Shown here one piece after another: positions 196 through 19,115 of a stretch of DNA of 19,115 nt. Positions within the stretch are counted from its first letter, which is position 1; every line of letters begins with the position of its first letter. The stretch is from a virus (lineage: Duplodnaviria > Heunggongvirae > Uroviricota > Caudoviricetes), in IMG/VR virus record IMGVR_UViG_2617270954_000002. One strand, 5' to 3'. The notes beneath the pieces were generated by a model. The model made no database searches. It was not told the DNA's origin and saw only the letters and a program-made list of their open reading frames with translations. The translations under genes and the position numbers were made by a program.

Positions 196-744
196 ATGAA
201 GGTTAATAAAAAGAGGCTTGCCGAAATTTTCAACGTGGACCCGCGGACGATTGAACGCTGGCAGTCTCAGGGACTCCCTTGCGCCTCCAAAGGTAGTAAG
301 GGCATTGAATCTGTATTTGATACTGCCATGGCAATTCAGTGGTATGCGCAGAGGGAAACTGATATCGAAAACGAAAAGCTCCGCAAAGAACTGGACGATT
401 TGCGTGCGGCAGCGGAGTCAGATTTACAACCCGGCACCATTGACTATGAACGCTACCGGCTCACAAAAGCGCAGGCAGATGCGCAGGAACTGAAAAATGC
501 CCGTGAAGACGGAGTAGTGCTGGAAACTGAACTGTTTACCTTCATTCTGCAACGTGTGGCACAGGAGATTTCGGGGATACTTGTGCGTGTGCCGTTGACA
601 TTACAGCGTAAATATCCGGACATTTCACCATCACACCTTGATGTGGTGAAAACTGAAATCGCGAAAGCCTCCAATGTTGCAGCTAAGGCCGGTGAAAACG
701 TGGGCGGGTGGATCGATGATTTCAGACGCGCAGAAGGCAGCTAA
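196..744 (+). CDS. Nu1: terminase small subunit (gpNu1-like), N-terminal winged-HTH DNA-binding domain
   Basis: 182 aa ORF; [24 protein letters not shown] and ..[28 protein letters not shown] recalled as closely matching lambda gpNu1; sits directly after cos. Confidence 0.9.
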
Positions 745-2644
745 TGCAGCCGGTGCGATAGCTACAGGGCTTTTATCTCTCATTATTCCTGTTCCACTGA
801 CGACAGTTCAGTGGGCCAATAAACATTATTACCTTCCTAAAGAGTCGTCTTATACCCCCGGGCGGTGGGAAACACTGCCGTTTCAGGTTGGCATCATGAA
901 CTGTATGGGCAACGATCTGATTCGCACGGTTAACCTGATTAAATCTGCCCGTGTTGGTTATACAAAGATGTTGCTGGGAGTGGAGGCTTATTTTATTGAG
1001 CATAAATCACGCAACAGCCTTCTTTTTCAGCCCACGGATTCTGCTGCTGAAGATTTTATGAAATCTCATGTGGAACCCACGATCAGGGATGTGCCGGTTT
1101 TACTCGATCTTGCACCGTGGTTTGGGCGTAAACATCGTGATAATACCCTCACGCTGAAACGTTTTTCATCCGGTGTGGGGTTCTGGTGTCTGGGTGGTGC
1201 GGCAGCAAAAAACTACCGTGAAAAATCCGTGGATGTGGTCTGTTATGACGAGCTTTCCTCGTTCGAACCGGATGTCGAAAAAGAGGGTTCGCCAACCCTG
1301 CTTGGGGATAAACGTATTGAGGGCTCTGTATGGCCCAAATCCATTCGCGGCTCGACGCCTAAAATCAAAGGCACCTGCCAGATCGAAAAAGCGGCCAACG
1401 AGTCGGCGCATTTCATGCGTTTTTATGTGCCCTGCCCACACTGTGGGGAGGAGCAGTATCTGAAATTTGGCGATGAATCCACGCCTTTTGGCCTTAAATG
1501 GGAGAAGGACAGCCCCGAAAGCGTTTTCTACCTCTGTGAACATCATGGCTGCGTGATCCATCAGTCTGAGCTTGACCAGAGCAACGGGCGGTGGATCTGT
1601 GAAAACACGGGGATGTGGACCCGTGACGGTCTGACGTTTTTCAGCGCCGCGGATAATGAAATTCCGCCGCCGCGCTCCATCACGTTCCATATCTGGACGG
1701 CGTACAGTCCGTTCACCACCTGGGTACAGATAGTCTATGACTGGCTGGATGCACTGAAAGATCCCAACGGCCTGAAAACCTTTGTGAACACCACGCTGGG
1801 CGAGACCTGGGAAGAGGCCGTGGGCGAAAAACTCGATCACCAGGTACTGATGGATAAGGTCGTGCATTACACGGCGGCGGTGCCAGCCCGGGTGGTTTAT
1901 CTGACGGCGGGCATTGACTCGCAGCGAAACCGTTTTGAGATGTATGTCTGGGGATGGGCTCCGGGAGAGGAAGCCTTTCTGGTGGATAAAATCATCATTA
2001 TGGGGCGTCCCGATGAGGAAGAGACGCTGTTACGTTTGGATGCGGCGATCAACAAAAAATACTGCCATGCAGACGGAACCGAAATGACCATTTCCCGTGT
2101 CTGCTGGGACACCGGGGGGATCGATGGTGAAATTGTCTATCAGAGGTCAAAAAAACACGGTGTTTTCCGGGTGCTGCCGGTAAAAGGCGCATCTGTCTAT
2201 GGCAAGCCGGTGATCACCATGCCGAAAACCCGCAATCAGCGGGGCGTGTATCTGTGTGAAGTGGGGACGGACACCGCAAAAGAAATTCTCTATGCCCGTA
2301 TGAAAGCCGATCCCACGCCTGCGGATGAAGCCACGTCGTATGCCATCCGTTTTCCTGATGATCCGGAGATTTTTTCGCAGACAGAGGCGCAGCAACTGGT
2401 GGCGGAAGAGCTTGTGGAGAAGTGGGAAAAAGGAAAGATGCGTCTGCTGTGGGATAACAAAAAGCGGCGTAACGAAGCGCTGGACTGCCTGGTGTATGCC
2501 TATGCGGCATTACGTGTGTCCGTGCAACGCTGGCAGCTTGATCTGGCTGTACTGGCAAAATCCCGGGAAGAAGAGACGACCCGGCCAACCCTTAAAGAAC
2601 TGGCAGCGAAGCTGTCCGGAGGAGTGAATGGTTACAGTCGCTGA
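716..2644 (+). CDS. A: terminase large subunit (gpA-like; ATPase/endonuclease)
   Basis: ORF 674..2644 aligns along its length with recalled lambda gpA (YYLPKES.[12 protein letters not shown], [28 protein letters not shown]). Start placed at the in-frame ATG at 716, which overlaps the Nu1 3' end as in lambda; ATG 674 is the alternative. Confidence 0.88.
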
Positions 2645-2834
2645 ACTACAGGCGCTGCGTCAGGCGCGCCTTGATTTATTAACCGGTAAACGGGTGGTGT
2701 CTGTCCAGAAAGATGGTCGCAGAATTGAATATACGGCGGCTTCTCTGGATGAGCTTAACCGGGCGATCAATGATGCGGAGTCGGTACTGGGGACAACCCG
2801 ACGTCGCCGTCGTCCGCTGGGAGTGAGGTTATGA
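2628..2834 (+). CDS. W: head-tail joining protein gpW-like
   Basis: 68 aa, same length as lambda gpW, with motif LLTGKRVVSVQKDGRRIEYTAAS; overlaps the A stop and the B start (ATGA). Confidence 0.85.
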   Translation: MVTVAELQALRQARLDLLTGKRVVSVQKDGRRIEYTAASLDELNRAINDAESVLGTTRRRRRPLGVRL

Positions 2835-4423
2835 AACGAACGCCTGTCCTGATTGATGTGAACGGCGTTCCGCTTCGTGAGAGTCTCAGCTACAACGGGG
2901 GCGGCGCAGGATTTGGCGGGCAAATGGCTGAGTGGTTGCCACCGGCGCAGAGTGCCGATGCAGCCCTGCTGCCCGCGTTGCGTCTGGGGAATGCCCGGGC
3001 AGATGATCTGGTGCGCAATAACGGAATAGCGGCCAATGCGGTGGCCCTGCATAAGGATCACATTGTCGGGCATATGTTTCTGATTAGCTACCGTCCGAAC
3101 TGGCGCTGGCTGGGGATGCGGGAGACCGCGGCAAAAAGTTTTGTCGATGAGGTGGAGGCGGCCTGGTCAGAATACGCAGAAGGGATGTTTGGTGAGATCG
3201 ACGTGGAAGGGAAACGCACGTTTACGGAATTTATCCGTGAAGGTGTGGGCGTTCATGCGTTTAACGGCGAAATCTTTGTGCAGCCGGTCTGGGATACGGA
3301 GAGCACGCAACTGTTTCGTACGCGTTTTAAAGCCGTGAGTCCGAAACGGGTGGACACGCCAGGACACGGTATGGGGAACCGTTTTCTGCGGGCCGGTGTG
3401 GAGGTCGATCGATATGGTCGTGCCGTTGCGTACCATATCTGTGAGGATGATTTTCCTCGCTCCGGGAGTGGACGATGGGAACGGATCCCGCGTGAACTTC
3501 CCACCGGGCGTCCGGCCATGCTGCATATTTTCGAGCCGGTGGAGGACGGGCAGACCCGTGGAGCCAATCAGTTTTACAGCGTAATGGAACGGCTGAAGAT
3601 GCTCGATTCCCTGCAGGCAACACAGCTTCAGTCGGCCATAGTGAAGGCGATGTATGCAGCGACGATTGAAAGTGACCTTGATACCGAAAAGGCCTTTGAA
3701 TATATCGCCGGTGCGCCGCAGGGGCAGAAGGATAATCCGCTTATTAATATTCTGGATAAGTTCTCCACCTGGTATGACACGAATAGCGTGACGCTGGGCG
3801 GTGTCAAAATTCCGCACCTTTTCCCCGGTGATGATCTGAAACTTCAGACCGCGCAGGATTCAGACAATGGATTTTCGGCGCTTGAACAGGCGCTGCTGCG
3901 GTATATCGCCGCCGGTCTTGGCGTTTCCTACGAACAGTTGTCCCGTGATTACTCGAAGGTCAGTTATTCAAGTGCCCGCGCATCCGCCAATGAGTCGTGG
4001 CGCTATTTTATGGGGCGGCGAAAATTTATTGCGTCCCGGCTGGCCACGCAGATGTTTTCCTGCTGGCTGGAAGAGGCACTTCTTCGGGGGATTATTCGTC
4101 CGCCACGGGCACGTTTTGATTTTTATCAGGCGCGTTCAGCCTGGTCACGGGCTGAGTGGATTGGTGCCGGAAGAATGGCCATTGACGGGCTCAAGGAGGT
4201 TCAGGAATCGGTGATGCGTATTGAGGCCGGACTGAGCACGTATGAGAAAGAGCTGGCGCTGATGGGCGAGGATTATCAGGACATTTTCCGCCAGCAGGTC
4301 AGGGAATCTGCAGAGCGGGAAAAAGCCGGACTCTCACGTCCGGTGTGGATAGCGCAGGCGTATCAGCAGCAGATAGCGGAGAGTCGCAGGCCGGAAGAGG
4401 AGACAACACCACGTGAGACGTAA
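2831..4423 (+). CDS. B: portal protein gpB-like
   Basis: 530 aa (lambda gpB about 533 aa); long blocks recalled as matching lambda B, e.g. FEPVEDGQTRGANQFYSVME, LLRYIAAGLGVSYEQLSR, GRMAIDGLKEVQESVM. Confidence 0.9.
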   Translation: MKRTPVLIDVNGVPLRESLSYNGGGAGFGGQMAEWLPPAQSADAALLPALRLGNARADDLVRNNGIAANAVALHKDHIVGHMFLISYRPNWRWLGMRETAAKSFVDEVEAAWSEYAEGMFGEIDVEGKRTFTEFIREGVGVHAFNGEIFVQPVWDTESTQLFRTRFKAVSPKRVDTPGHGMGNRFLRAGVEVDRYGRAVAYHICEDDFPRSGSGRWERIPRELPTGRPAMLHIFEPVEDGQTRGANQFYSVMERLKMLDSLQATQLQSAIVKAMYAATIESDLDTEKAFEYIAGAPQGQKDNPLINILDKFSTWYDTNSVTLGGVKIPHLFPGDDLKLQTAQDSDNGFSALEQALLRYIAAGLGVSYEQLSRDYSKVSYSSARASANESWRYFMGRRKFIASRLATQMFSCWLEEALLRGIIRPPRARFDFYQARSAWSRAEWIGAGRMAIDGLKEVQESVMRIEAGLSTYEKELALMGEDYQDIFRQQVRESAEREKAGLSRPVWIAQAYQQQIAESRRPEEETTPRET

Positions 4424-5918
4424 TCTTTCACACATTATTGCAGCAGCATTCAATGAACCGCTGCTTCTGGAGCCCGCCTATGCGCGGGTTTTCTTTTGCG
4501 CGCTCGGGCGCGAGATGGGGGCAGCAAGTCTTTCGGTACCACAACAGCAGGTACAGTTTGATGCTCCCGGAATGCTGGCTGAAACGGACGAGTACATGGC
4601 CGGAGGTAAACGACCGGCCCGTGTTTACCGGGTGGTGAACGGTATTGCTGTACTGCCGGTGACAGGCACGCTGGTGCACCGGCTGGGCGGTATGCGGCCA
4701 TTTTCCGGAATGACAGGCTATGACGGCATTGTCGCCTGTCTTCAGCAGGCAATGGCAGATAGCCAGGTGCGGGGCGTACTGCTGGACATTGACAGTCCGG
4801 GCGGGCAGGCCGCCGGTGCGTTTGACTGTGCTGACATGATTTACCGCCTCCGTCAGCAGAAGCCGGTCTGGGCACTGTGCAATGACACGGCCTGTTCTGC
4901 AGCCATGCTGCTGGCGTCGGCCTGCTCCCGACGGCTGGTTACCCAGACATCCCGTATCGGCTCCATTGGTGTGATGATGAGCCATGTCAGCTATGCCGGT
5001 AATCTGGCGCAGGCCGGTGTGGATATCACGCTGATTTACTCAGGGGCGCACAAGGTGGATGGCAATCAGTTTGAAGTCTTACCGGAAGAGGTGCGTCAGG
5101 ACATGCAGCAGCGGATTGATGCGGCGCGCCGGATGTTTGCCGAAAAAGTGGCGATGTATACCGGTCTGTCTGTTGATGCAGTCACGGGAACAGAGGCCGC
5201 CGTTTTTGAAGGTCAGTCCGGCATTGAGGCCGGGCTGGCGGATGAATTAATCAATGCGTCGGATGCCATCAGTGTGATGGCCACGGCGCTGAACAGTAAT
5301 GTCAGAGGAGGCACTATGCCGCAATTAACTGCAACGGAAGCTGCCGCGCAGGAGAACCAGCGAGTGATGGGGATCCTGACGTGTCAGGAAGCGAAAGGAC
5401 GTGAACACCTTGCCACGATGCTGGCAGGACAACAGGGCATGAGCGTTGAACAGGCCCGGGCGATTCTGACCGCGGCAGCACCACAGCAGCCGGTGGCATC
5501 CACGCAGAGTGAAGCCGATCGCATTATGGCGTGTGAAGAGGCTAAAGGTCGTGAACAACTGGCGGCAACGCTGGCGGCGATGCCGGAGATGACGGTGGAA
5601 AAAGCCCGCCCGATCTTGGCTGCCTCACCGCAGGCGGATGCCGGGCCCTCACTTCGTGATCAGATCATGGCCCTGGATGAGGCAAAAGGGGCAGAAGCGC
5701 AGGCTGAAAAACTGGCGGCGTTTCCCGGAATGACGGTGGAGGCTGCCCGCGACATTCTGTCCTCATCGCCGGATAAAGCAGAACCGGTCTCTGCATCCAC
5801 AACTGCCCTGTTTGAACATTTCATGGCGAATCATTCACCGGCAGCGGTGCGGGGTGGCGTGTCACAGACGTCAGCAGACGGTGATGCGGACGTGAAAATG
5901 CTCATGGCCATGCCATGA
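4413..5918 (+). CDS. C: prohead protease/scaffold protein gpC-like (S49/ClpP-type fold), C-terminal scaffold domain
   Basis: 501 aa; N-terminal FNEPLLLEPAYARVFFCAL and the VWALCND..SAA..LASA / TSRIGSIGVMM region match recalled lambda gpC; overlaps the B stop. Confidence 0.85.
   Translation: MRRNLSHIIAAAFNEPLLLEPAYARVFFCALGREMGAASLSVPQQQVQFDAPGMLAETDEYMAGGKRPARVYRVVNGIAVLPVTGTLVHRLGGMRPFSGMTGYDGIVACLQQAMADSQVRGVLLDIDSPGGQAAGAFDCADMIYRLRQQKPVWALCNDTACSAAMLLASACSRRLVTQTSRIGSIGVMMSHVSYAGNLAQAGVDITLIYSGAHKVDGNQFEVLPEEVRQDMQQRIDAARRMFAEKVAMYTGLSVDAVTGTEAAVFEGQSGIEAGLADELINASDAISVMATALNSNVRGGTMPQLTATEAAAQENQRVMGILTCQEAKGREHLATMLAGQQGMSVEQARAILTAAAPQQPVASTQSEADRIMACEEAKGREQLAATLAAMPEMTVEKARPILAASPQADAGPSLRDQIMALDEAKGAEAQAEKLAAFPGMTVEAARDILSSSPDKAEPVSASTTALFEHFMANHSPAAVRGGVSQTSADGDADVKMLMAMP
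5316..5918 (+). CDS. Nu3: nested in-frame scaffold protein (Nu3-like), internal start within the C frame
   Basis: In-frame ATG at 5316 preceded by a strong Shine-Dalgarno (AGAGGAGG, 5304-5311); about 600 nt, close to the recalled lambda Nu3 length; shares its stop with C. Confidence 0.5.
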   Translation: MPQLTATEAAAQENQRVMGILTCQEAKGREHLATMLAGQQGMSVEQARAILTAAAPQQPVASTQSEADRIMACEEAKGREQLAATLAAMPEMTVEKARPILAASPQADAGPSLRDQIMALDEAKGAEAQAEKLAAFPGMTVEAARDILSSSPDKAEPVSASTTALFEHFMANHSPAAVRGGVSQTSADGDADVKMLMAMP

Positions 5919-5954: not shown

Positions 5955-6301
5955 ATGGTGACGAAAACCATCACTGAACAGCGTGCGGAAGTACGTATTT
6001 TTGCCGGTAATGATCCGGCTCATACCGCCACAGGCAGCAGCGGGATTTCTCAGCAACACCGGCACTGACGCCCCTGATGCTGGATGAAGCCACCGGGAAA
6101 CTGGTGGTCTGGGACGGACAGAAAGCCGGTAGTGCGGCTGGCATACTGGTACTGCCGCTTGAAGGCACAGAGACGGTGCTGACCTATTACAAGTCGGGGA
6201 CCTTTGCGACGGAGGCAATCCGCTGGCCTGACAGTGTGGATGAACACAAAAAGGCAAATGCCTTTGCCGGCACAGCCCTGAGTCACGCGGCTCTGCCGTA
6301 A
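5955..6301 (+). pseudogene. D: head decoration protein gpD-like, interrupted by a frame break (candidate pseudogene or sequencing indel)
   Basis: ATG at 5955 gives MVTKTITEQRAEVRIFAGNDPAHTATGSSGISQQHRH then TGA at 6066-6068. The rest of the D homolog (LTPLMLDEATGKLVVWDG...YKSGTF...AFAGTA) continues to 6301 in the -1 frame. Lambda gpD is recalled as one continuous 110 aa protein. Confidence 0.6.
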
Positions 6302-6308
6302 CACGTTA

Positions 6309-6330
6309 TCAGGCCACCATGGTGGCCTGA
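6309..6330. repeat. 22-bp perfect palindrome (TCAGGCCACCATGGTGGCCTGA) in the D-E intergenic region
   Basis: The sequence equals its own reverse complement; it lies between the D stop (6301) and the E start (6359). Confidence 0.6.
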
Positions 6331-6358
6331 CTGATTTCTGAATGAAAGGAACTGATTT

Positions 6359-7439: not shown

Positions 7440-7809
7440 ATGGCAACAAAAGAAGAAAATCAGAAACGTCTTCGTGAACTGGCTGGCCTGCTGGGGCGCG
7501 AGGCGGATATGTCGGGGAGTGCTGCGGATATCGCACAGCGTGTGGCAGAGTGGGAAGAGGAGGTTTGCGCATCGGAAAATGAAATCGCAGATGTTGATGA
7601 TACCGTTTATGAGCAGGCATACAGGAACACCGGTGAGGATGACGTTCGGTATTCTGGAACGTATCATGCTTCTGAAGTGTTTTTACCTGTGCGGTGTTGA
7701 CGATGAAACAGGTGAGCCTGTTGAGCATGTTGATGCTGGCAGAGTAATTCTGATGCCCCCCTCAGTGGCAAAAGACATGGTCAGGAGCGGAATGGCCGTT
7801 TATGCGTGA
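7440..7809 (+). pseudogene. FI: DNA-packaging protein gpFI-like, split across two reading frames
   Basis: Frame of 7440 gives an N-terminus like recalled lambda FI (..LRELAGLLGRE...AADIAQRVAEWEEEV) and stops at 7698-7700. The FI-like C-terminus (LLKCFYLCGVDDETGEPV...AKDMVRSGMAVYA) is in the +1 frame, ending at 7809 and overlapping the FII start (ATGCGTGA). Break lies roughly within 7600-7650. Confidence 0.55.
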
Positions 7810-8744: not shown

Positions 8745-9136
8745 AACATACTGAACTCCGTGCAGCCGTACTGGATGCACTGGAGAAGCATGACACCGGG
8801 GCGACGTTTTTTGATGGTCGCCCCGCTGTTTTTGATGAGGCGGATTTTCCGGCAGTTGCCGTTTATCTCACCGGCGCTGAATACACGGGCGAAGAGCTGG
8901 ACAGCGATACCTGGCAGGCGGAGCTGCATATCGAAGTTTTCCTGCCTGCTCAGGTGCCGGATTCAGAGCTGGATTCGTGGATGGAGTCCCGGATTTATCC
9001 GGTGATGAGCGATATCCCGGCACTGTCAGATTTGATCACCAGTATGGTGGCCAGTGGCTATGACTATCGGCGCGACGATGATGCGGGCCTGTGGAGTTCA
9101 GCCGATCTGACTTATGTCATTACCTATGAAATGTGA
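8741..9136 (+). CDS. U: minor tail protein gpU-like (tail terminator)
   Basis: 131 aa; appears near-identical to my recollection of lambda gpU ([54 protein letters not shown]...); start overlaps the Z stop (ATGA). Confidence 0.9.
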
Positions 9137-9143
9137 GGACGCT

Positions 9144-9896
9144 ATGCCTGTACCAAATCCAGTAATGCCGGTGAAAGGTGCCGGGACCACACTGTGGGTT
9201 TATAAGGGGAACGGTGACCCTTATGCGAACCCGCTTTCAGACGTTGACTGGTCACGTCTGGCAAAAGTTAAAGACCTGACGCCGGGCGAGATGACGGCAG
9301 AATCCTACGATGATAACTACCTGGATGATGAAGACGCAGACTGGACCGCGACCGGGCAGGGGCAGAAATCTGCAGGTGATACCAGTTTTACGCTGGCCTG
9401 GAAACCGGGAGAGGAATGTCAGAAAGGGCTTATAGGCTGGTTTGAAAGCGGCGATGTCCGGGCCTATAAAATCCGTTTTCCGAATGGCACGGTGGATGTG
9501 TTTCGTGGCTGGGTCAGCAGTATCGGTAAGGCCGTGACGGCGAAAGAAGTGATCACCCGCACGGTGAAAGTCACTAACGTGGGTAAACCTTCTGTAGCGG
9601 AAGAACGCAGCAAAATTACGCCGGTCAGTGCGATTAAGGTGACGCCGACATCCGGTACGGTGGCAAAAGGGAAAACAACCACCCTGACGGTTTCTTTTGA
9701 GCCGGAAAGTGCAACCGACAAGACGTTCAGAGCGGTTTCCGCCGATCCGTCGAAAGCCACCATTAGTGTGAAAGATATGACAATTACGGTAAACGGCGTG
9801 GCGACAGGTAAGGTGCAGATCCCTGTGGTGAGCGGAAATGGTCAGTTCGCCGCAGTGGCTGAAGTCACCGTTACTGAAGCGGGCGCTGCAGGGTAA
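9144..9896 (+). CDS. V: major tail tube protein gpV-like with C-terminal Ig-like (BIG2-type) domain
   Basis: ORF 9114..9896; lambda-like start [22 protein letters not shown] at ATG 9144 with a GAGGA Shine-Dalgarno upstream; long stretches match recalled lambda V. Confidence 0.9.
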
Positions 9897-14363: not shown

Positions 14364-15107
14364 ATGACAGAGACAGAATCAGCGATTCTGGCGCACGCCC
14401 GGCGATGTGCGCCAGCGGAGTCGTGCGGCTTCGTGGTAAGCACGCCGGAGGGGGAAAGATATTTCCCCTGCGTGAATATCTCCGGTGAGCCGGAGGCGTA
14501 TTTCCGGATGGCTCCGGAGGACTGGCTGCAGGCAGAGATGCAGGGTGAGATTGTGGCGCTGGTCCACAGCCACCCCGGTGGTCTGCCCTGGCTGAGTGAG
14601 GCTGACCGGCGGCTGCAGGTGCAGAGCGATTTGCCGTGGTGGCTGGTCTGCCGGGGGGCGATTCACAAGTTCCGCTGTGTGCCGCATCTCACCGGGCGGC
14701 GCTTTGAGTACGGGGTGACGGACTGTTACACACTGTTCCGGGATGCTTACCATCTGGCGGGGATTGAGATGCCGGATTTTCATCGCGGGGATGACTGGTG
14801 GCGTCACGGTCAGAATCTCTATCTTGACAATATGGAGGCTACTGGTTTTTACCGTGTCGCACTGACAGAGGCGCAGCCGGGCGATGTGCTGCTGTGCTGT
14901 TTTGGTTCATCGGTGCCGAATCACGCCGCCATTTACTGCGGCGACGGTGAGCTGCTGCACCATATTCCTGAACAACTGAGTAAACGAGAGAGGTATACCG
15001 ACAAATGGCAGCGACGCACACACTCCCTCTGGCGTCACCGGGAATGGCACGCATCTGCCTTTACGGGGATTTGCAACGATTTGGCCGCCGCATCGACCTT
15101 CGAGTGA
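14364..15107 (+). CDS. K: tail tip assembly protein gpK-like (JAB/MPN metalloprotease-like plus NlpC/P60-like domains)
   Basis: ORF 14322..15107; lambda-like start MTETESAILAHARRCAPAESCGFV at ATG 14364; HSHPGG (JAMM-like) motif and a downstream Cys/His region; overlaps the I start by about 100 nt as in lambda. Confidence 0.8.
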   Translation: MTETESAILAHARRCAPAESCGFVVSTPEGERYFPCVNISGEPEAYFRMAPEDWLQAEMQGEIVALVHSHPGGLPWLSEADRRLQVQSDLPWWLVCRGAIHKFRCVPHLTGRRFEYGVTDCYTLFRDAYHLAGIEMPDFHRGDDWWRHGQNLYLDNMEATGFYRVALTEAQPGDVLLCCFGSSVPNHAAIYCGDGELLHHIPEQLSKRERYTDKWQRRTHSLWRHREWHASAFTGICNDLAAASTFE

Positions 15108-15646
15108 AAACGGGGGCTGAAGCCATCCGGGCACTGGCCACACAGCTCCCGGCGTTTCGTCAGAAACTGAGCGATGGCTGGTATCAGGTACGGATTGCCG
15201 GGCGGGATGCAGGAGAAACCGAATTATCATCCCGTCTTAATGAGCCGCTGGCAAATGGTGCCGTGATCCACATCGTGCCGCGTCTTGCGGGAGCAAAAAG
15301 TGGCGGTGTGTTTCAGGCGGTGCTGGGTGCGGCGTTGATTGCTACGGCAATCTGGATGCCGGGGATCAGTATCGCTTTCAGTGACATTCTCTTTTCAATG
15401 GGTGCGGCGATGACGCTTGGTGGTGTGGCGCAGATGCTGGCACCGAAAGCCAGAACTCCCCGTACACAGACAACGGATAACGGCAAACAGAACACCTATT
15501 TCTCCTCACTGGATAACATGGTTGCCCAGGGCAATGTCCTGCCTGTTCTGTACGGTGAAATGCGCGTGGGGTCACGTGTGGCATCTCAGGAGATCAGCAC
15601 GGCAGATGAAGGGGATGGTGGTCAGGTTGTGGTAATTGGGCGGTAA
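15005..15646 (+). CDS. I: tail tip assembly protein gpI-like
   Basis: 213 aa; YFSSLDNMVAQGNVLPVLYGEMRVGSRVASQEISTADEGDGGQVVVIGR matches the recalled lambda I C-terminus. Confidence 0.82.
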   Translation: MAATHTLPLASPGMARICLYGDLQRFGRRIDLRVKTGAEAIRALATQLPAFRQKLSDGWYQVRIAGRDAGETELSSRLNEPLANGAVIHIVPRLAGAKSGGVFQAVLGAALIATAIWMPGISIAFSDILFSMGAAMTLGGVAQMLAPKARTPRTQTTDNGKQNTYFSSLDNMVAQGNVLPVLYGEMRVGSRVASQEISTADEGDGGQVVVIGR

Positions 15647-15669
15647 TATTATTTTACTCATGTTCTAAC

Positions 15670-15700
15670 TGATTTAATATTTATATCGAACACTGATAAT
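15670..15700 (+). promoter_or_regulatory. candidate sigma70-type promoter for the lipoprotein gene (weak call)
   Basis: AT-rich stretch with a -10-like GATAAT (15695-15700) about 20 nt upstream of the ATG and weak -35-like hexamers (TGATTT/TTAATA) about 17-19 nt further upstream; no strong consensus. Confidence 0.2.
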
Positions 15701-15719
15701 TATTCTATTGGTTAGCTAT

Positions 15720-16058
15720 ATGAACAAAACGATTTTATTCTGCACGATTATTGCCTTAACAGGATGTAAGTCTTTGGATTACGTAAAATCCGGAAAACCT
15801 GTAATGGAAGGTAATTCATTAAAAAATATTGATGAATTGTCAGGCTGCATATCCAGACAATGGGCTGGTAATGGAACACCTATAACATCCCTTCCTATTG
15901 AGAATGGGGTAAGCCTTTTAGTTCCACAGGCTATGGGGGGATATGATGTTGTGCTTGATATCAAAAAAGCAGGAAATGGCAGTAGTTTTACTCTTTATGA
16001 ACGTGTACCAGCATTAACGCCAAAAATTTTTGCTGATAGTGTTAATGCATGTAAATAA
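15720..16058 (+). CDS. small secreted lipoprotein of unknown function (phage moron); mature protein about 97 aa, predicted outer-membrane lipoprotein
   Basis: ORF 15708..16058, with ATG at 15720 preferred over the TTG at 15708. N-terminus MNKTILFCTIIALTGC is a lipoprotein signal peptide with lipobox LTGC; residue after the Cys is Lys (not Asp), consistent with Lol export to the outer membrane. The gene is AT-rich within a GC-rich operon. Confidence 0.6.
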   Translation: MNKTILFCTIIALTGCKSLDYVKSGKPVMEGNSLKNIDELSGCISRQWAGNGTPITSLPIENGVSLLVPQAMGGYDVVLDIKKAGNGSSFTLYERVPALTPKIFADSVNACK

Positions 16059-16082
16059 TAGTTAATCCTGTCGTAACTCATG

Positions 16083-16110
16083 AGCCGCCTTTTGGGCGGC
16101 TTTGTTGTTT
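16083..16110 (+). terminator. candidate rho-independent terminator downstream of the lipoprotein gene
   Basis: Stem AGCCGCC (16083-16089), loop TTTTG, stem GGCGGCT (16095-16101), followed by TTGTTGTTT. Confidence 0.55.
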
Positions 16111-16124
16111 ATGGAGTGTGAGGA

Positions 16125-19115
16125 ATGGGTAAAGGAAGCAGTAAGGGGCATACCCCGCGCGAAGCGAGGGACAACCTGAAGTCCACGCAGCTGCTGAGTG
16201 TGATCGATGCCATCAGCGAAGGGCCGGTTGAAGGTCCGGTGGACGGATTAAAAAGCGTGCTGCTGAACAGTACGCCGGTGCTGGACAGTGAGGGGAATAC
16301 CAATATATCCGGTGTCACGGTGGTGTTCCGGGCAGGTGAGCAGGAGCAGACACCGCCGGAGGGATTTGAATCCTCCGGCTCCGAGACGGTGCTGGGTACG
16401 GAAGTGAAATATGACACGCCGATCACCCGGACCATCACGTCGGCAAACATCGACCGTCTGCGCTTTACCTTCGGTGTGCAGGCACTGGTGGAAACCACCT
16501 CAAAGGGGGACAGGAATCCGTCGGAAGTCCGCCTGCTGGTTCAGATCCAGCGTAACGGTGGCTGGGTGACGGAAAAAGACATCACCATTAAGGGCAAAAC
16601 CACCTCGCAGTATCTGGCCTCGGTGGTGGTGGATAACCTGCCGCCGCGCCCGTTTAATATCCGGATGCGCAGAATGACGCCGGACAGCACCACAGACCAG
16701 CTGCAGAACAAAACGCTCTGGTCGTCATACACCGAAATCATCGATGTGAAACAGTGCTACCCGAACACGGCACTGGTCGGCGTGCAGGTGGACTCGGAAC
16801 AGTTCGGCAGCCAGCAGGTGAGCCGTAATTATCATCTTCGCGGGCGCATTCTGCAGGTGCCGTCGAACTATAACCCGCAGACGCGGCAATACAGCGGTAT
16901 CTGGGACGGAACGTTTAAGCCAGCATACAGCAACAACATGGCCTGGTGTCTGTGGGATATGCTGACCCATCCGCGCTACGGCATGGGGAAGCGTCTCGGT
17001 GCGGCGGATGTGGACAAATGGGCGCTGTATGTCATCGGCCAGAATTGCGACCAGTCGGTGCCGGATGGCTTTGGTGGCACGGAGCCGCGCATCACCTGTA
17101 ATGCCTACCTGACCACACAGCGCAAGGCGTGGGATGTGCTCAGCGATTTCTGCTCGGCGATGCGCTGTATGCCGGTATGGAACGGGCAGACGCTGACATT
17201 CGTGCAGGACCGGCCGTCGGATAAGGTGTGGATCTATAACCGCAGCAATGTGGTGATGCCGGATGATGGCGCGCCGTTCCGCTACAGCTTCAGCGCCCTG
17301 AAAGACCGCCATAATGCCGTTGAGGTGAACTGGATTGACCCGGATAACGGCTGGGAGACGGCGACAGAGCTTGTGGAGGACACGCAGGCCATTGCCCGTT
17401 ACGGTCGTAACGTCACGAAGATGGATGCCTTTGGCTGTACCAGTCGGGGGCAGGCACACCGCGCCGGGCTGTGGTTGATTAAAACGGAGCTGCTGGAAAC
17501 GCAGACCGTGGACTTCAGCGTGGGCGCAGAAGGGCTTCGTCATGTACCGGGCGATGTCATTGAAATCTGCGATGATGACTATGCGGGTATCAGCACCGGC
17601 GGGCGCGTGCTGGCGGTGAACAGCCAGGCGCGGACACTGACGCTCGACCGTGAAATCACGCTGCCATCCTCCGGTACCACGCTGATAAGCCTGGTTGACG
17701 GAAGTGGCAATCCGGTCAGCGTGGAGGTTCAGTCCGTCACCGACGGCGTGAAGGTAAAAGTGAGCCGTGTTCCTGACGGTGTTGCTGAATACAGCGTATG
17801 GGGGCTGAAGCTGCCGACGCTGCGCCAGCGACTGTTCCGCTGCGTGAGTATCCGTGAGAACGACGACGGCACGTATGCCATCACCGCCGTGCAGCATGTG
17901 CCGGAAAAAGAGGTCATCGTGGATAACGGGGCGCACTTTGACGGCGAACAGAGTGGCACGGTGAACGGTGTCACGCCGCCAGCGGTGCAGCACCTGACCG
18001 CAGAAGTCACTGCAGACAGCGGGGAATACCAGGTGCTGGCCCGCTGGGACACGCCGAAGGTGGTGAAGGGCGTGAGCTTCCTGCTTCGCCTGACCGTGGC
18101 AGCGGATGACGGCAGTGAGCGGCTGGTCAGCACGGCCCGGACGACGGGAACCACTTACCGCTTCACACAACTGGCTCTGGGGAACTACAGGCTGACAGTC
18201 CGGGCAGTAAATGCGTGGGGGCAGCAGGGCGATCCGGCGTCGGTATCGTTCCGGATTGCCGCACCGGCAGCGCCGTCGCGGATTGAGCTGACGCCGGGCT
18301 ATTTTCAGATAACCGCCACGCCGCATCTTGCGGTTTATGATCCGACGGTACAGTTTGAGTTCTGGTTCTCGGAAAAGCGGATTGCGGATATCAGGCAGGT
18401 TGAAACCACAGCACGCTATCTTGGCACGGCGCTGTACTGGATAGCCGCCAGTATCAATATCAAACCGGGCCATGATTATTATTTTTATATCCGCAGTGTG
18501 AATACTGTTGGCAAATCGGCATTCGTGGAGGCTGTCGGTCGGGCGAGCGATGATGCGGAAGGTTACCTGGATTTTTTCAAAGGAGAGATAGGGAAAACAC
18601 ATCTGGCTCAGGAGCTGTGGACGCAGATTGATAACGGTCAGCTTGCGCCTGACCTGGCTGAAATCAGGACGTCCATTACGGATGTCAGCAATGAAATCAC
18701 GCAGACTGTCAATAAGAAACTGAAAGACCAGAGTGCGGCAATCCAGCAGATACAGAAGGTTCAGGTTGATACAAATAATAACCTGAACAGCATGTGGGCT
18801 GTGAAGCTGCAGCAGATGCAGGACGGACGCCTTTATATCGCGGGTATTGGTGCCGGTATTGAAAACACCCCTGACGGCATGCAGAGTCAGGTGCTGCTGG
18901 CGGCAGACAGGATTGCGATGATTAATCCTGCGAATGGCAACACAAAGCCGATGTTTGTTGGTCAGGGCGATCAGATATTCATGAACGACGTGTTCCTGAA
19001 ACGCCTGACGGCTCCCACCATTACCAGCGGCGGTAATCCTCCGGCATTTTCCCTGACACCGGACGGGCGGCTGACGGCGAAAAATGCCGATATCAGCGGT
19101 AACGTGAATGCGAAC
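16125..19115 (+). CDS. J: tail tip/host specificity protein gpJ-like (central tail fibre), 3'-truncated by the window end
   Basis: ATG at 16125 with GGAG upstream; 997 in-frame codons with no stop to the last base. N-terminus [34 protein letters not shown] and most of the region appear near-identical to recalled lambda gpJ. Not in the supplied ORF track because it has no in-window stop. Confidence 0.9.

Follow-up and report, generated by a model that had tools for sequence, protein, structure and literature searches.

The closest described counterparts of the locus reported here are the morons in the tail operons of phages HK97 and HK022 (Juhala et al., 2000; Cumby et al., 2012; reviewed in PMC3594210). 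HK97 gp15, the founding moron, derives from the bacterial protein YebO, and both its expression from the prophage and its role in superinfection exclusion have been demonstrated (PMC3594210). The periplasmic lipoprotein Llp of phage T5 blocks adsorption allosterically (PMC9586334), and the Lpp proteins that mEpimmI phages encode (Lpp021, Lpp010) exclude OmpA- or LamB-using phages when expressed from a plasmid (PMC11893012). Here we analyze an AT-rich cassette that lies between tail genes I and J of the IMG/VR virus record IMGVR_UViG_2617270954_000002 (Caudoviricetes; 19,115 nucleotides, the whole stretch being referred to as the window) and encodes a 112-aa prolipoprotein of the family PHROG 914. 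The cassette is a moron in the sense of Hendrix, located in an already known moron slot; the kind of element, the site and the family were known before. Our best explanation as a whole, a moron lipoprotein that would interfere with phage infection at the level of the envelope, has a probability of roughly 0.45.

In the GenBank annotation, HK97 gp22/gp23 and HK022 gp22/srb occupy the slot between I and J (I/J), HK97 gp15 lies between the tail chaperone and the tape-measure gene (T/H) and HK022 gp20 between K and I (K/I), with a putative terminator annotated just before the next tail gene in each case. PHROG 914 members share many of these properties: they use the same three slots on the same strand, a hairpin with a T-run directly precedes the next tail gene, and the GC content is similarly low (HK97 gp15 0.33, HK022 gp20 0.40, HK97 gp22 0.42). 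The cargo is also alike in being a small envelope protein, with YebO relatives in the case of gp15 and a chromosomal relative in the case of PHROG 914. An Enterobacter HK97-like prophage even carries a PHROG 914 member exactly at the position of HK97 gene 15. The window protein is an outer-membrane-type lipoprotein and contains an alpha+beta domain, whereas gp15 and gp20 lack a lipobox and cross the inner membrane in a single pass. Membership in the gp15/YebO group was rejected, as these proteins with transmembrane helices have no evident resemblance to the window protein by eye and only the slot is shared.

An AT-rich insertion between I and J

The spacer between I and J of lambda is 60 bp long and consists of the stop codon, TGCAAAATGTTTTATGTG, the hairpin GAAACCGCC-TGCG-GGCGGTTTTGTCATTT and then ATGGAGCGTGAGGA-ATG; empty junctions in Escherichia coli (STEC309, 2020N21-110) match this spacer. 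In the window, the 3' end of gpI aligns with lambda I through its stop codon (TAA, 15644-15646), where homology to lambda ends, and it returns at the hairpin GAGCCGCC-TTTT-GGGCGGCTTTGTTGTTT. A 7-bp repeat, ACTCATG, brackets the insert exactly where homology to the empty junctions is lost and regained, which may reflect microhomology from insertion by illegitimate recombination or chance. The layout of the locus is as follows:

14364..15107, + strand: gpK-like tail tip protein (Pfam Prok-JAB and NlpC/P60; RefSeq 'C40 family peptidase' in the identical O104:H4 prophage); backbone, upstream of the cassette
15071..15646, + strand: gpI-like tail assembly protein (Pfam Lambda_tail_I, E 9.5e-20); backbone
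15656..15662, + strand: left copy of the 7-bp direct repeat ACTCATG, read from the sequence and compared with empty junctions
15663..16082, + strand: inserted AT-rich cassette of 420 bp (57-bp leader, lipoprotein ORF, 24-bp trailer), absent from lambda and from empty E. coli I/J junctions
15674..15700, + strand: best sigma-70-like match, weak (TTAATA, 15-bp spacer, GATAAT; 9/12 positions), with no evidence of function
15720..16058, + strand: prolipoprotein gene, 112 aa, PHROG 914 (ATG at 15720, TAA at 16058; RefSeq WP_001332187.1 'hypothetical protein')
16076..16082, + strand: right copy of the direct repeat ACTCATG, read and compared in the same way
16082..16112, + strand: hairpin before J with T-rich tail (stem-loop 16082-16102); feature of the backbone or slot, not specific to the cassette
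16125..19115, + strand: gpJ tip attachment protein, N-terminal 997 aa (Pfam FNIII-A_GpJ, Phage-tail_3, Ig_J, Ig_J_second, Phage_Tail_Tip)

The insertion is a minority state in E. coli. The I/J junction used as query was found in 4351 of 5426 genomes (8786 places), only 334 of which carry the insert; about 96% of the junctions are without it, and these empty junctions span about 415-420 bp less than the query region covered. The 486 bases of the I/J region are 100% identical to an O104:H4 prophage located beside an ompW remnant and the trp operon, and they are present in 338/5426 complete E. coli genomes. A megablast search against phage records found no phage carrying this insert.

Base composition sets the insert apart from its neighbors. 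The GC content of the cassette is 0.349 (0.35-0.37 over the insert) compared to 0.57 for I and 0.58 for J, and the GC3 value is 0.25 compared to 0.57-0.59. The lowest 400-bp GC window in the whole 19-kb sequence falls on the insert (0.345 against a mean of 0.554, z = -4.7), and the next lowest elsewhere is 0.432. The first-pass annotation, a reading of the letters made before this analysis, had described AT-rich extra DNA at this site and called it a moron. The insertion relative to lambda and the GC profile bear out the former. The latter label holds with regard to the extra DNA between genes adjacent in relatives, the base composition unlike that of the surrounding genes (both in the sense of Hendrix and Juhala) and the slot shared with annotated morons in HK97 and HK022, whereas a terminator and a promoter of its own are not supported, as described below. 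Its ORF and translation match ours; J starts at 16125 and the interval 16083-16110 given for the terminator covers the stem plus tail, so that coordinates shifted by one base only.

A lipoprotein of PHROG 914, a family found in three tail-operon slots

The translation of the 112-aa protein, MNKTILFCTIIALTGC followed by KSLDY...NACK, agrees with the sequence reported previously. It starts with a basic n-region and a hydrophobic h-region and contains the lipobox pattern [LVI][ASTVI][GAS]C within the first ~25 residues (MNKTILFCTIIALTG-C16), so that the lipoprotein signal noted earlier is confirmed by pattern match: the lipobox reads L-T-G-C, the signal peptide is encoded by codons 15720-15764 and Cys16 by 15765-15767, and Lys follows at +2. 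A Lys, and not an Asp, at +2 predicts Lol-dependent sorting to the outer membrane, and the mature protein is likely to be sorted to the periplasmic face of this membrane.

An AlphaFold2 (AF2) model based on a 12-sequence alignment (pLDDT 83.7, pTM 0.76) predicts a disordered signal peptide and a compact alpha+beta domain, in which a short helix and a strand at the N-terminus precede another helix, four strands and a final helix at the C-terminus. Cys43 belongs to the first long helix and Cys111 to the last one, and a disulfide between the two probably staples the mature domain of ~96 aa. The best structural match is Flpp3/DUF3568 (PDB 6pny, 2mu4, 9nlt), an outer-membrane lipoprotein from Francisella that has been described as determining virulence. 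This match differs in having an identity of 6-9% and a Foldseek E-value of only 5e-3; with such an identity and no Pfam DUF3568 match, membership in the Flpp3 family was rejected. The fold class of Flpp3 is common to many unrelated proteins (DUF302, KA1, BamC-N, Bet v 1/START), and the single significant match in BFVD is an uncharacterized Pseudomonas phage protein. The fold alone points to no function. Scans of the protein against Pfam (E <= 10), NCBIfam and PADLOC returned no family, the only match being one between VirB7 and the signal peptide (E 0.08), and the Pfam result also eliminated lambda Bor/Iss (PF06291) as a candidate. Sequence searches of the PDB with the single protein and with the family profile gave signal-peptide or chance matches only.

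The protein matches phrog_914 over its full length (residues 1-112, E 7.3e-33), a family whose function is not annotated, and the same PHROG is matched by HK140 gp19 and by relatives from phage Fraca, Klebsiella, Enterobacter, Yersinia and Shimwellia. A word-indexed search identified relatives with 50-60% identity in Klebsiella, Kluyvera, Enterobacter and Jejubacter, and an exhaustive profile search yielded 125 clusters at 50% identity, nearly all of them 105-125 aa long and with a lipobox; Hafnia and Serratia are among the further taxa, besides Yersinia and Shimwellia. Three cysteines (Cys16 of the lipobox, Cys43 and Cys111) are invariant in a 73-sequence alignment, and a Pfam scan of these 73 distant members revealed no family. 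In the source databases, members are named 'hypothetical protein', 'lipoprotein' or 'putative periplasmic lipoprotein'. The cultured K-12 phages HK140 and mEpX2, first reached by tblastn with a 45-aa query, carry members with an hhalign probability of 98.9% (E 1e-17), HK140 gp19 being annotated as 'similar to putative phage-related lipoprotein'. Phages Fraca and LMessi carry members as well, and a scan of GTDB genomes added one Kluyvera locus. For the most distant members, the contexts are mostly short, uninformative metagenomic contigs.

Every phage-borne member examined is located in the tail operon, on the operon strand and in one of three slots:

K/I: HK140, mEpX2, Fraca and LMessi; Klebsiella, Kluyvera and Yersinia prophages; several metagenomic contigs
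T/H (the slot of HK97 gene 15): Enterobacter HK97-like prophages
I/J: only the E. coli allele studied here, with J at +70 in all loci at least 98% identical that have enough downstream sequence

The phage copies are all AT-rich compared to their flanks (0.37-0.46 versus 0.44-0.55). A member from Shimwellia blattae (CP001560; locus L013, 6001-6339) is chromosomal and not part of a prophage. It shows 38% identity, has a native GC content of 0.62 and sits between a yidB-like gene and ecotin, near copC/copD/yebY. The phage family may have its bacterial source in this gene, in parallel to YebO and gp15.

Besides PHROG 914 members, the K/I slot holds other cargo. The K/I spacer of HK97 (locus L100, 6014-6334) contains a copy of HK022 gp20, which is a single-pass membrane protein similar to gp15/YebO, interrupted by an in-frame stop. 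Since HK97 carries this interrupted copy, the slot holds alternative and decaying cargo. In Yersinia enterocolitica prophages (L093-L095, ~400-4940), we observed an accessory island of 4-5 kb between K and the lipoprotein gene. It encodes Arc-family repressors, Bro-N/ANT/KilA-N antirepressor-like genes and, in one case, a SocA/Panacea-domain gene, and resembles a P22 immI-type region inside the tail operon.

Sixty IMG/VR copies of the E. coli allele were compared. They represent 17 nucleotide alleles with up to 8 nucleotide differences, which translate to 0-2 amino-acid changes; most of the differences are synonymous, and 56/60 copies are intact (frameshifted or truncated copies: P0002, P0018, L079-L081). 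Because of this pattern, the data indicate purifying selection on a real protein within E. coli. Between different phages, the opposite is seen. We compared K, I and the mature lipoprotein between HK140 (L097), Fraca (L002), a Klebsiella prophage (L006), Yersinia prophages (L106 and L094) and the window (14364-16058):

HK140 and Fraca: K 94%, I 70%, mature lipoprotein 26% identity
HK140 and Klebsiella prophage: K 85%, I 65%, mature lipoprotein 20% identity
Window and Klebsiella prophage: K 36%, I 36%, mature lipoprotein 54% identity

The values for the lipoprotein do not follow those for K and I and indicate that the lipoprotein gene is an exchangeable cassette which diverges far faster than its flanks, by exchange and/or rapid diversification. 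Such a divergence pattern is typical of a protein engaging a variable partner, namely a phage or the host surface.

The hairpin before J and expression signals

The first-pass annotation had assigned a terminator to the cassette itself. The hairpin was indeed predicted as a terminator-like site and folds well (-18.8 kcal/mol, z = -4.0), but homologous structures precede J at the cargo-less junctions of lambda, E. coli and N15 (annotated there as stem_loop) as well as in HK97 and HK022, and lambda homology resumes at the hairpin. For these reasons, it is not assignable to the cassette. Window and lambda differ in the stem by one compensatory change from A:T to G:C. A related observation is that many lambda/HK97-type phages have a GC-rich hairpin, a T-run and then ATGG(G/A) right before the starts of H, I and/or J. 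We read this element in HK97, HK022, N15, HK140, Fraca and lambda, with or without cargo upstream, at the following positions:

Window: 16082-16124
Lambda (L019): 765-805
N15 (L098): 4308-4342
HK97 (L100): 899-935, 6300-6334 and 7608-7641
HK022 (L099): ~2490-2522 and ~3605-3637
HK140 (L097): 3852-3885

The element could be a shared 3' end of morons, a recombination hotspot for cassette exchange or an element for processing or stability of the late-operon mRNA. An Rfam scan of the window gave no matches.

A promoter of its own could not be assigned to the cassette either. A tool-based scan of 15300-16400 detected no sigma-70 promoter on the + strand, and the best candidate in a relaxed scan, TTAATA-15-GATAAT, matches 9/12 positions but has a spacer of only 15 bp. 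The Shine-Dalgarno sequence of the window copy is weak. In the K/I phages, the lipoprotein gene starts ~30 bp from K, and the gaps to its neighbors are 6-60 bp in most phages. Given the lack of a convincing promoter and the tight packing of the relatives in the operon, co-transcription with the late tail genes is the most likely mode of expression, and some weak expression from the prophage is possible.

Candidate functions of the lipoprotein

Three groups of phage lipoproteins served as models for a possible function. The Cor proteins of phi80, N15, HK022 and T1 (phrog_1119) are similar to the window protein in being small lipoproteins from the tail-fibre region of lambdoid siphophages with a conserved cysteine pair. 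They differ in their length of ~78 aa, their location downstream of J and their PHROG. An hhalign comparison of the family profile with N15 Cor aligned 29 columns, the signal peptide only, and there was no phrog_1119 match. T5 Llp (PDB 8a60; PMC9586334) is likewise a periplasmic lipoprotein encoded beside the receptor-binding gene, and its disulfide Cys11-Cys58 ties the termini together, as Cys43-Cys111 might in the window protein. It is smaller, however, and the PHROG 914 family is not consistently found beside the receptor-binding domain; a PDB profile search matches Llp only in the signal peptide (residues 1-19, E 0.56), and Llp is absent from the fold hits. The mEpimmI Lpp proteins are also lipoproteins within the structural gene cluster of temperate coliphages, but they have ~72 aa, are encoded downstream of J on the opposite strand and belong to phrog_4281. 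It is this PHROG and not 914 that mEp021 gp81 matches, and a tblastn search of the window protein against all phage records found no mEp phages. The analogy to Cor and Llp drawn in the first-pass annotation therefore does not extend to homology, as alignments to N15 Cor and Llp are confined to the signal peptide. A paper on the sRNA svsR was also checked and turned out to be unrelated.

Among the possible functions, we tentatively rank interference with phage infection at the envelope first, at somewhat below even odds, because the phage genes are confined to tail operons across genera, share a slot with gp15, have precedents in Cor, Llp and mEpimmI Lpp and show the divergence pattern described above. 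According to this proposal, late-operon transcription, perhaps supplemented by weak expression from the prophage, would provide a prolipoprotein that is cleaved and lipidated at Cys16. The Lol pathway would place the protein on the periplasmic face of the outer membrane, and from this side it might disturb infection by other phages (superinfection exclusion or lytic conversion). Its target could be another outer-membrane protein or an incoming tail-tip/tape-measure component, and it would not be tuned to the phage's own J.

A number of observations weigh against such a role. The protein resembles none of Cor, Llp and mEp Lpp in sequence or fold, all family members are annotated as hypothetical, and literature searches by accession, locus tag and phage name retrieved no functional or expression study of any of them. 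As neither the scan nor manual inspection found a promoter, expression in the lysogen is unproven. The chromosomal homologue in Shimwellia shows that, in some bacteria, the fold serves a role unrelated to phages. A gene of the Llp kind would be expected beside the receptor-binding gene and matched to its receptor. The family is adjacent to J, namely to its 5' end, in the E. coli lineage only. Even there, the gene is not linked to one type of J, as became evident from 35 IMG/VR loci with a complete J and lipoprotein alleles at least 98% identical:

Type A of the J C-terminus (the type of the window): 24 loci, 1159 or 1131 aa
Type B: 6 loci, ~51% identity with A across the final 200 aa
Type D: 3 loci, 82-84% identity with phage 21
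1084-aa form of J: 2 loci

The same allele thus stands beside types A, B and D, which are ~50-70% identical to each other, and the LamB-binding J type of lambda is not present among the 35 loci (at most 55% identity). Conversely, there are phage records with a type-A J and without the lipoprotein (e.g., PPompW_EH1992 and 2G7b), which implies that the lipoprotein is dispensable for the virion. Finally, besides the PHROG 914 gene at K/I, both HK140 and the IMG/VR locus L091 contain a gene for a Cor homologue downstream of J (the two genes lie at 1-116 and 5366-5599 in L105, the HK140 locus, and at 6001-6336 and 11333-11554 in L091). With both present in two independent phages, Cor and the PHROG 914 protein are unlikely to be functional duplicates. 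The first-pass annotation had derived a receptor-masking function from the position next to J. This argument is weakened by the K/I or T/H location of most members, the divergent J types beside nearly identical alleles and the co-occurrence with Cor. We therefore rejected a specificity for the neighboring J receptor-binding domain: allele pairing with J types A, B and D, together with the Cor genes already present in HK140 and L091, makes masking of the phage's own J receptor unlikely, and this does not argue against exclusion in general.

One competing explanation is a lipoprotein for lysogenic conversion or host fitness without any role in exclusion, comparable to Bor/Iss or Flpp3 and acting in serum resistance, stress tolerance, adhesion or envelope homeostasis. 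Flpp3 as the best structural match, the native-GC homologue beside ecotin in Shimwellia, the enrichment of the cassette in pathogenic lineages such as O104:H4 and the precedent of lambda Lom and Bor, two envelope morons with host-directed roles, are in agreement with this explanation. However, Pfam gave no match to Bor or another family, the phage members are confined to tail-operon slots in many genera and not to the usual loci of lysogenic conversion, a promoter for expression from the prophage is missing, and the extreme divergence relative to the flanks fits a phage arms race better, though it is still compatible with host-immune pressure. We regard a host-directed role as rather unlikely, yet as an alternative to be taken seriously. 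Less probable is a helper of the late lytic cycle, which would be made only after induction, along with the tail genes, leave the lysogen unprotected and either inactivate receptors on debris and vesicles, the second role of T5 Llp, or modify the envelope before lysis. As expected for such a helper, the gene is embedded in the late operon and shares its strand, lies 6-60 bp from its neighbors in most phages and lacks a promoter. The downstream hairpin is a shared backbone element, and antiterminated late transcription has to read through it to J; in lambda, antitermination by Q carries late transcription through terminators. On the other hand, a target on the phage's own receptor would require the allele to track the receptor-binding domain of J, which it does not, Cor already fills this role in HK140 and L091, and the minutes before lysis leave little time for export and saturation of a target.

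Two further alternatives concern the origin and the integrity of the gene. It could be an old accessory gene of the M-L-K-I-J tail module which was lost by lambda, with the I/J copy in E. coli as a secondary relocation; this proposal addresses history and is compatible with envelope-level interference. Members with only 18-32% identity share the K/I position in phages of E. coli, Klebsiella, Kluyvera and Yersinia, and the I/J junction of lambda keeps a cargo-less hairpin that resembles the 3' end of such cassettes. In contrast, the markedly AT-rich composition of all phage copies compared to their flanks, the uncoupling of the lipoprotein identity from K and I in both directions and the unrelated cargo of the slot (gp20 in HK022, a pseudogene in HK97) point to cassette turnover and not to vertical descent, and we consider the old-gene scenario quite improbable. 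A decaying or functionless ORF hitch-hiking in AT-rich junk DNA might account for the few frameshifted or truncated copies and the weak Shine-Dalgarno sequence of the window copy. It is largely refuted by the comparison of the 60 IMG/VR alleles, with 56/60 intact and mostly synonymous changes, as well as by the cysteines invariant across genera and the confident AF2 model, which make it extremely improbable.

Returning to interference with infection, a more specific and, in our view, unlikely version is that PHROG 914 represents a widespread exclusion class linked to the tail module, with hypervariable cassettes that hop between T/H, K/I and I/J. Acting on the periplasmic side of the outer membrane, such proteins might block a step independent of the J receptor-binding domain, for example passage of the tail tip or tape measure across the periplasm, and would be a Gram-negative counterpart of Ltp, a Streptococcus lipoprotein that reportedly blocks a conserved post-adsorption step. 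If true, this reading would explain both the coexistence with Cor and the divergence of alleles far beyond that of K and I.

Should the protein exclude phages, a new and very common family would join the few envelope-level exclusion proteins of enterobacterial prophages, with a bearing on the host range in phage therapy and on prophage competition. The allele is carried by ~6% of the complete E. coli genomes, among them the O104:H4 outbreak lineage, and has relatives in Klebsiella, Enterobacter, Yersinia, Serratia and Hafnia; the cultured K-12 phages HK140 and mEpX2 make the family directly testable. If it is not an exclusion factor, it is one more uncharacterized moron. Whatever the function, the locus is a clean example of three tail-operon slots reused by unrelated cargo, each ending in a near-identical hairpin.

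The remaining observations concern the phages around the cassette. The window corresponds to the left (morphogenesis) arm of an E. coli prophage of the lambda type, with the gene order Nu1, A, W, B, C, D, E, head-tail genes, V, G/T, H, M, L, K, I, J. Its gpJ leaves the window at the 3' edge and has a full length of 1159 aa in the identical prophage (L001). In the Klebsiella prophages L006, L007 and L009 (from ~7054), the J homologues exceed 3100-3360 aa, about three times the length of lambda J, and contain CBM_4_9. The homologue of the major tail protein V is frameshifted in the RefSeq annotation of O104:H4 2011C-3493 (L001, 11507-12257) and forms an uninterrupted 260-aa ORF in the window (9114-9896), so that either the window derives from a slightly different prophage copy or V of the O104:H4 reference contains an error or a mutation.

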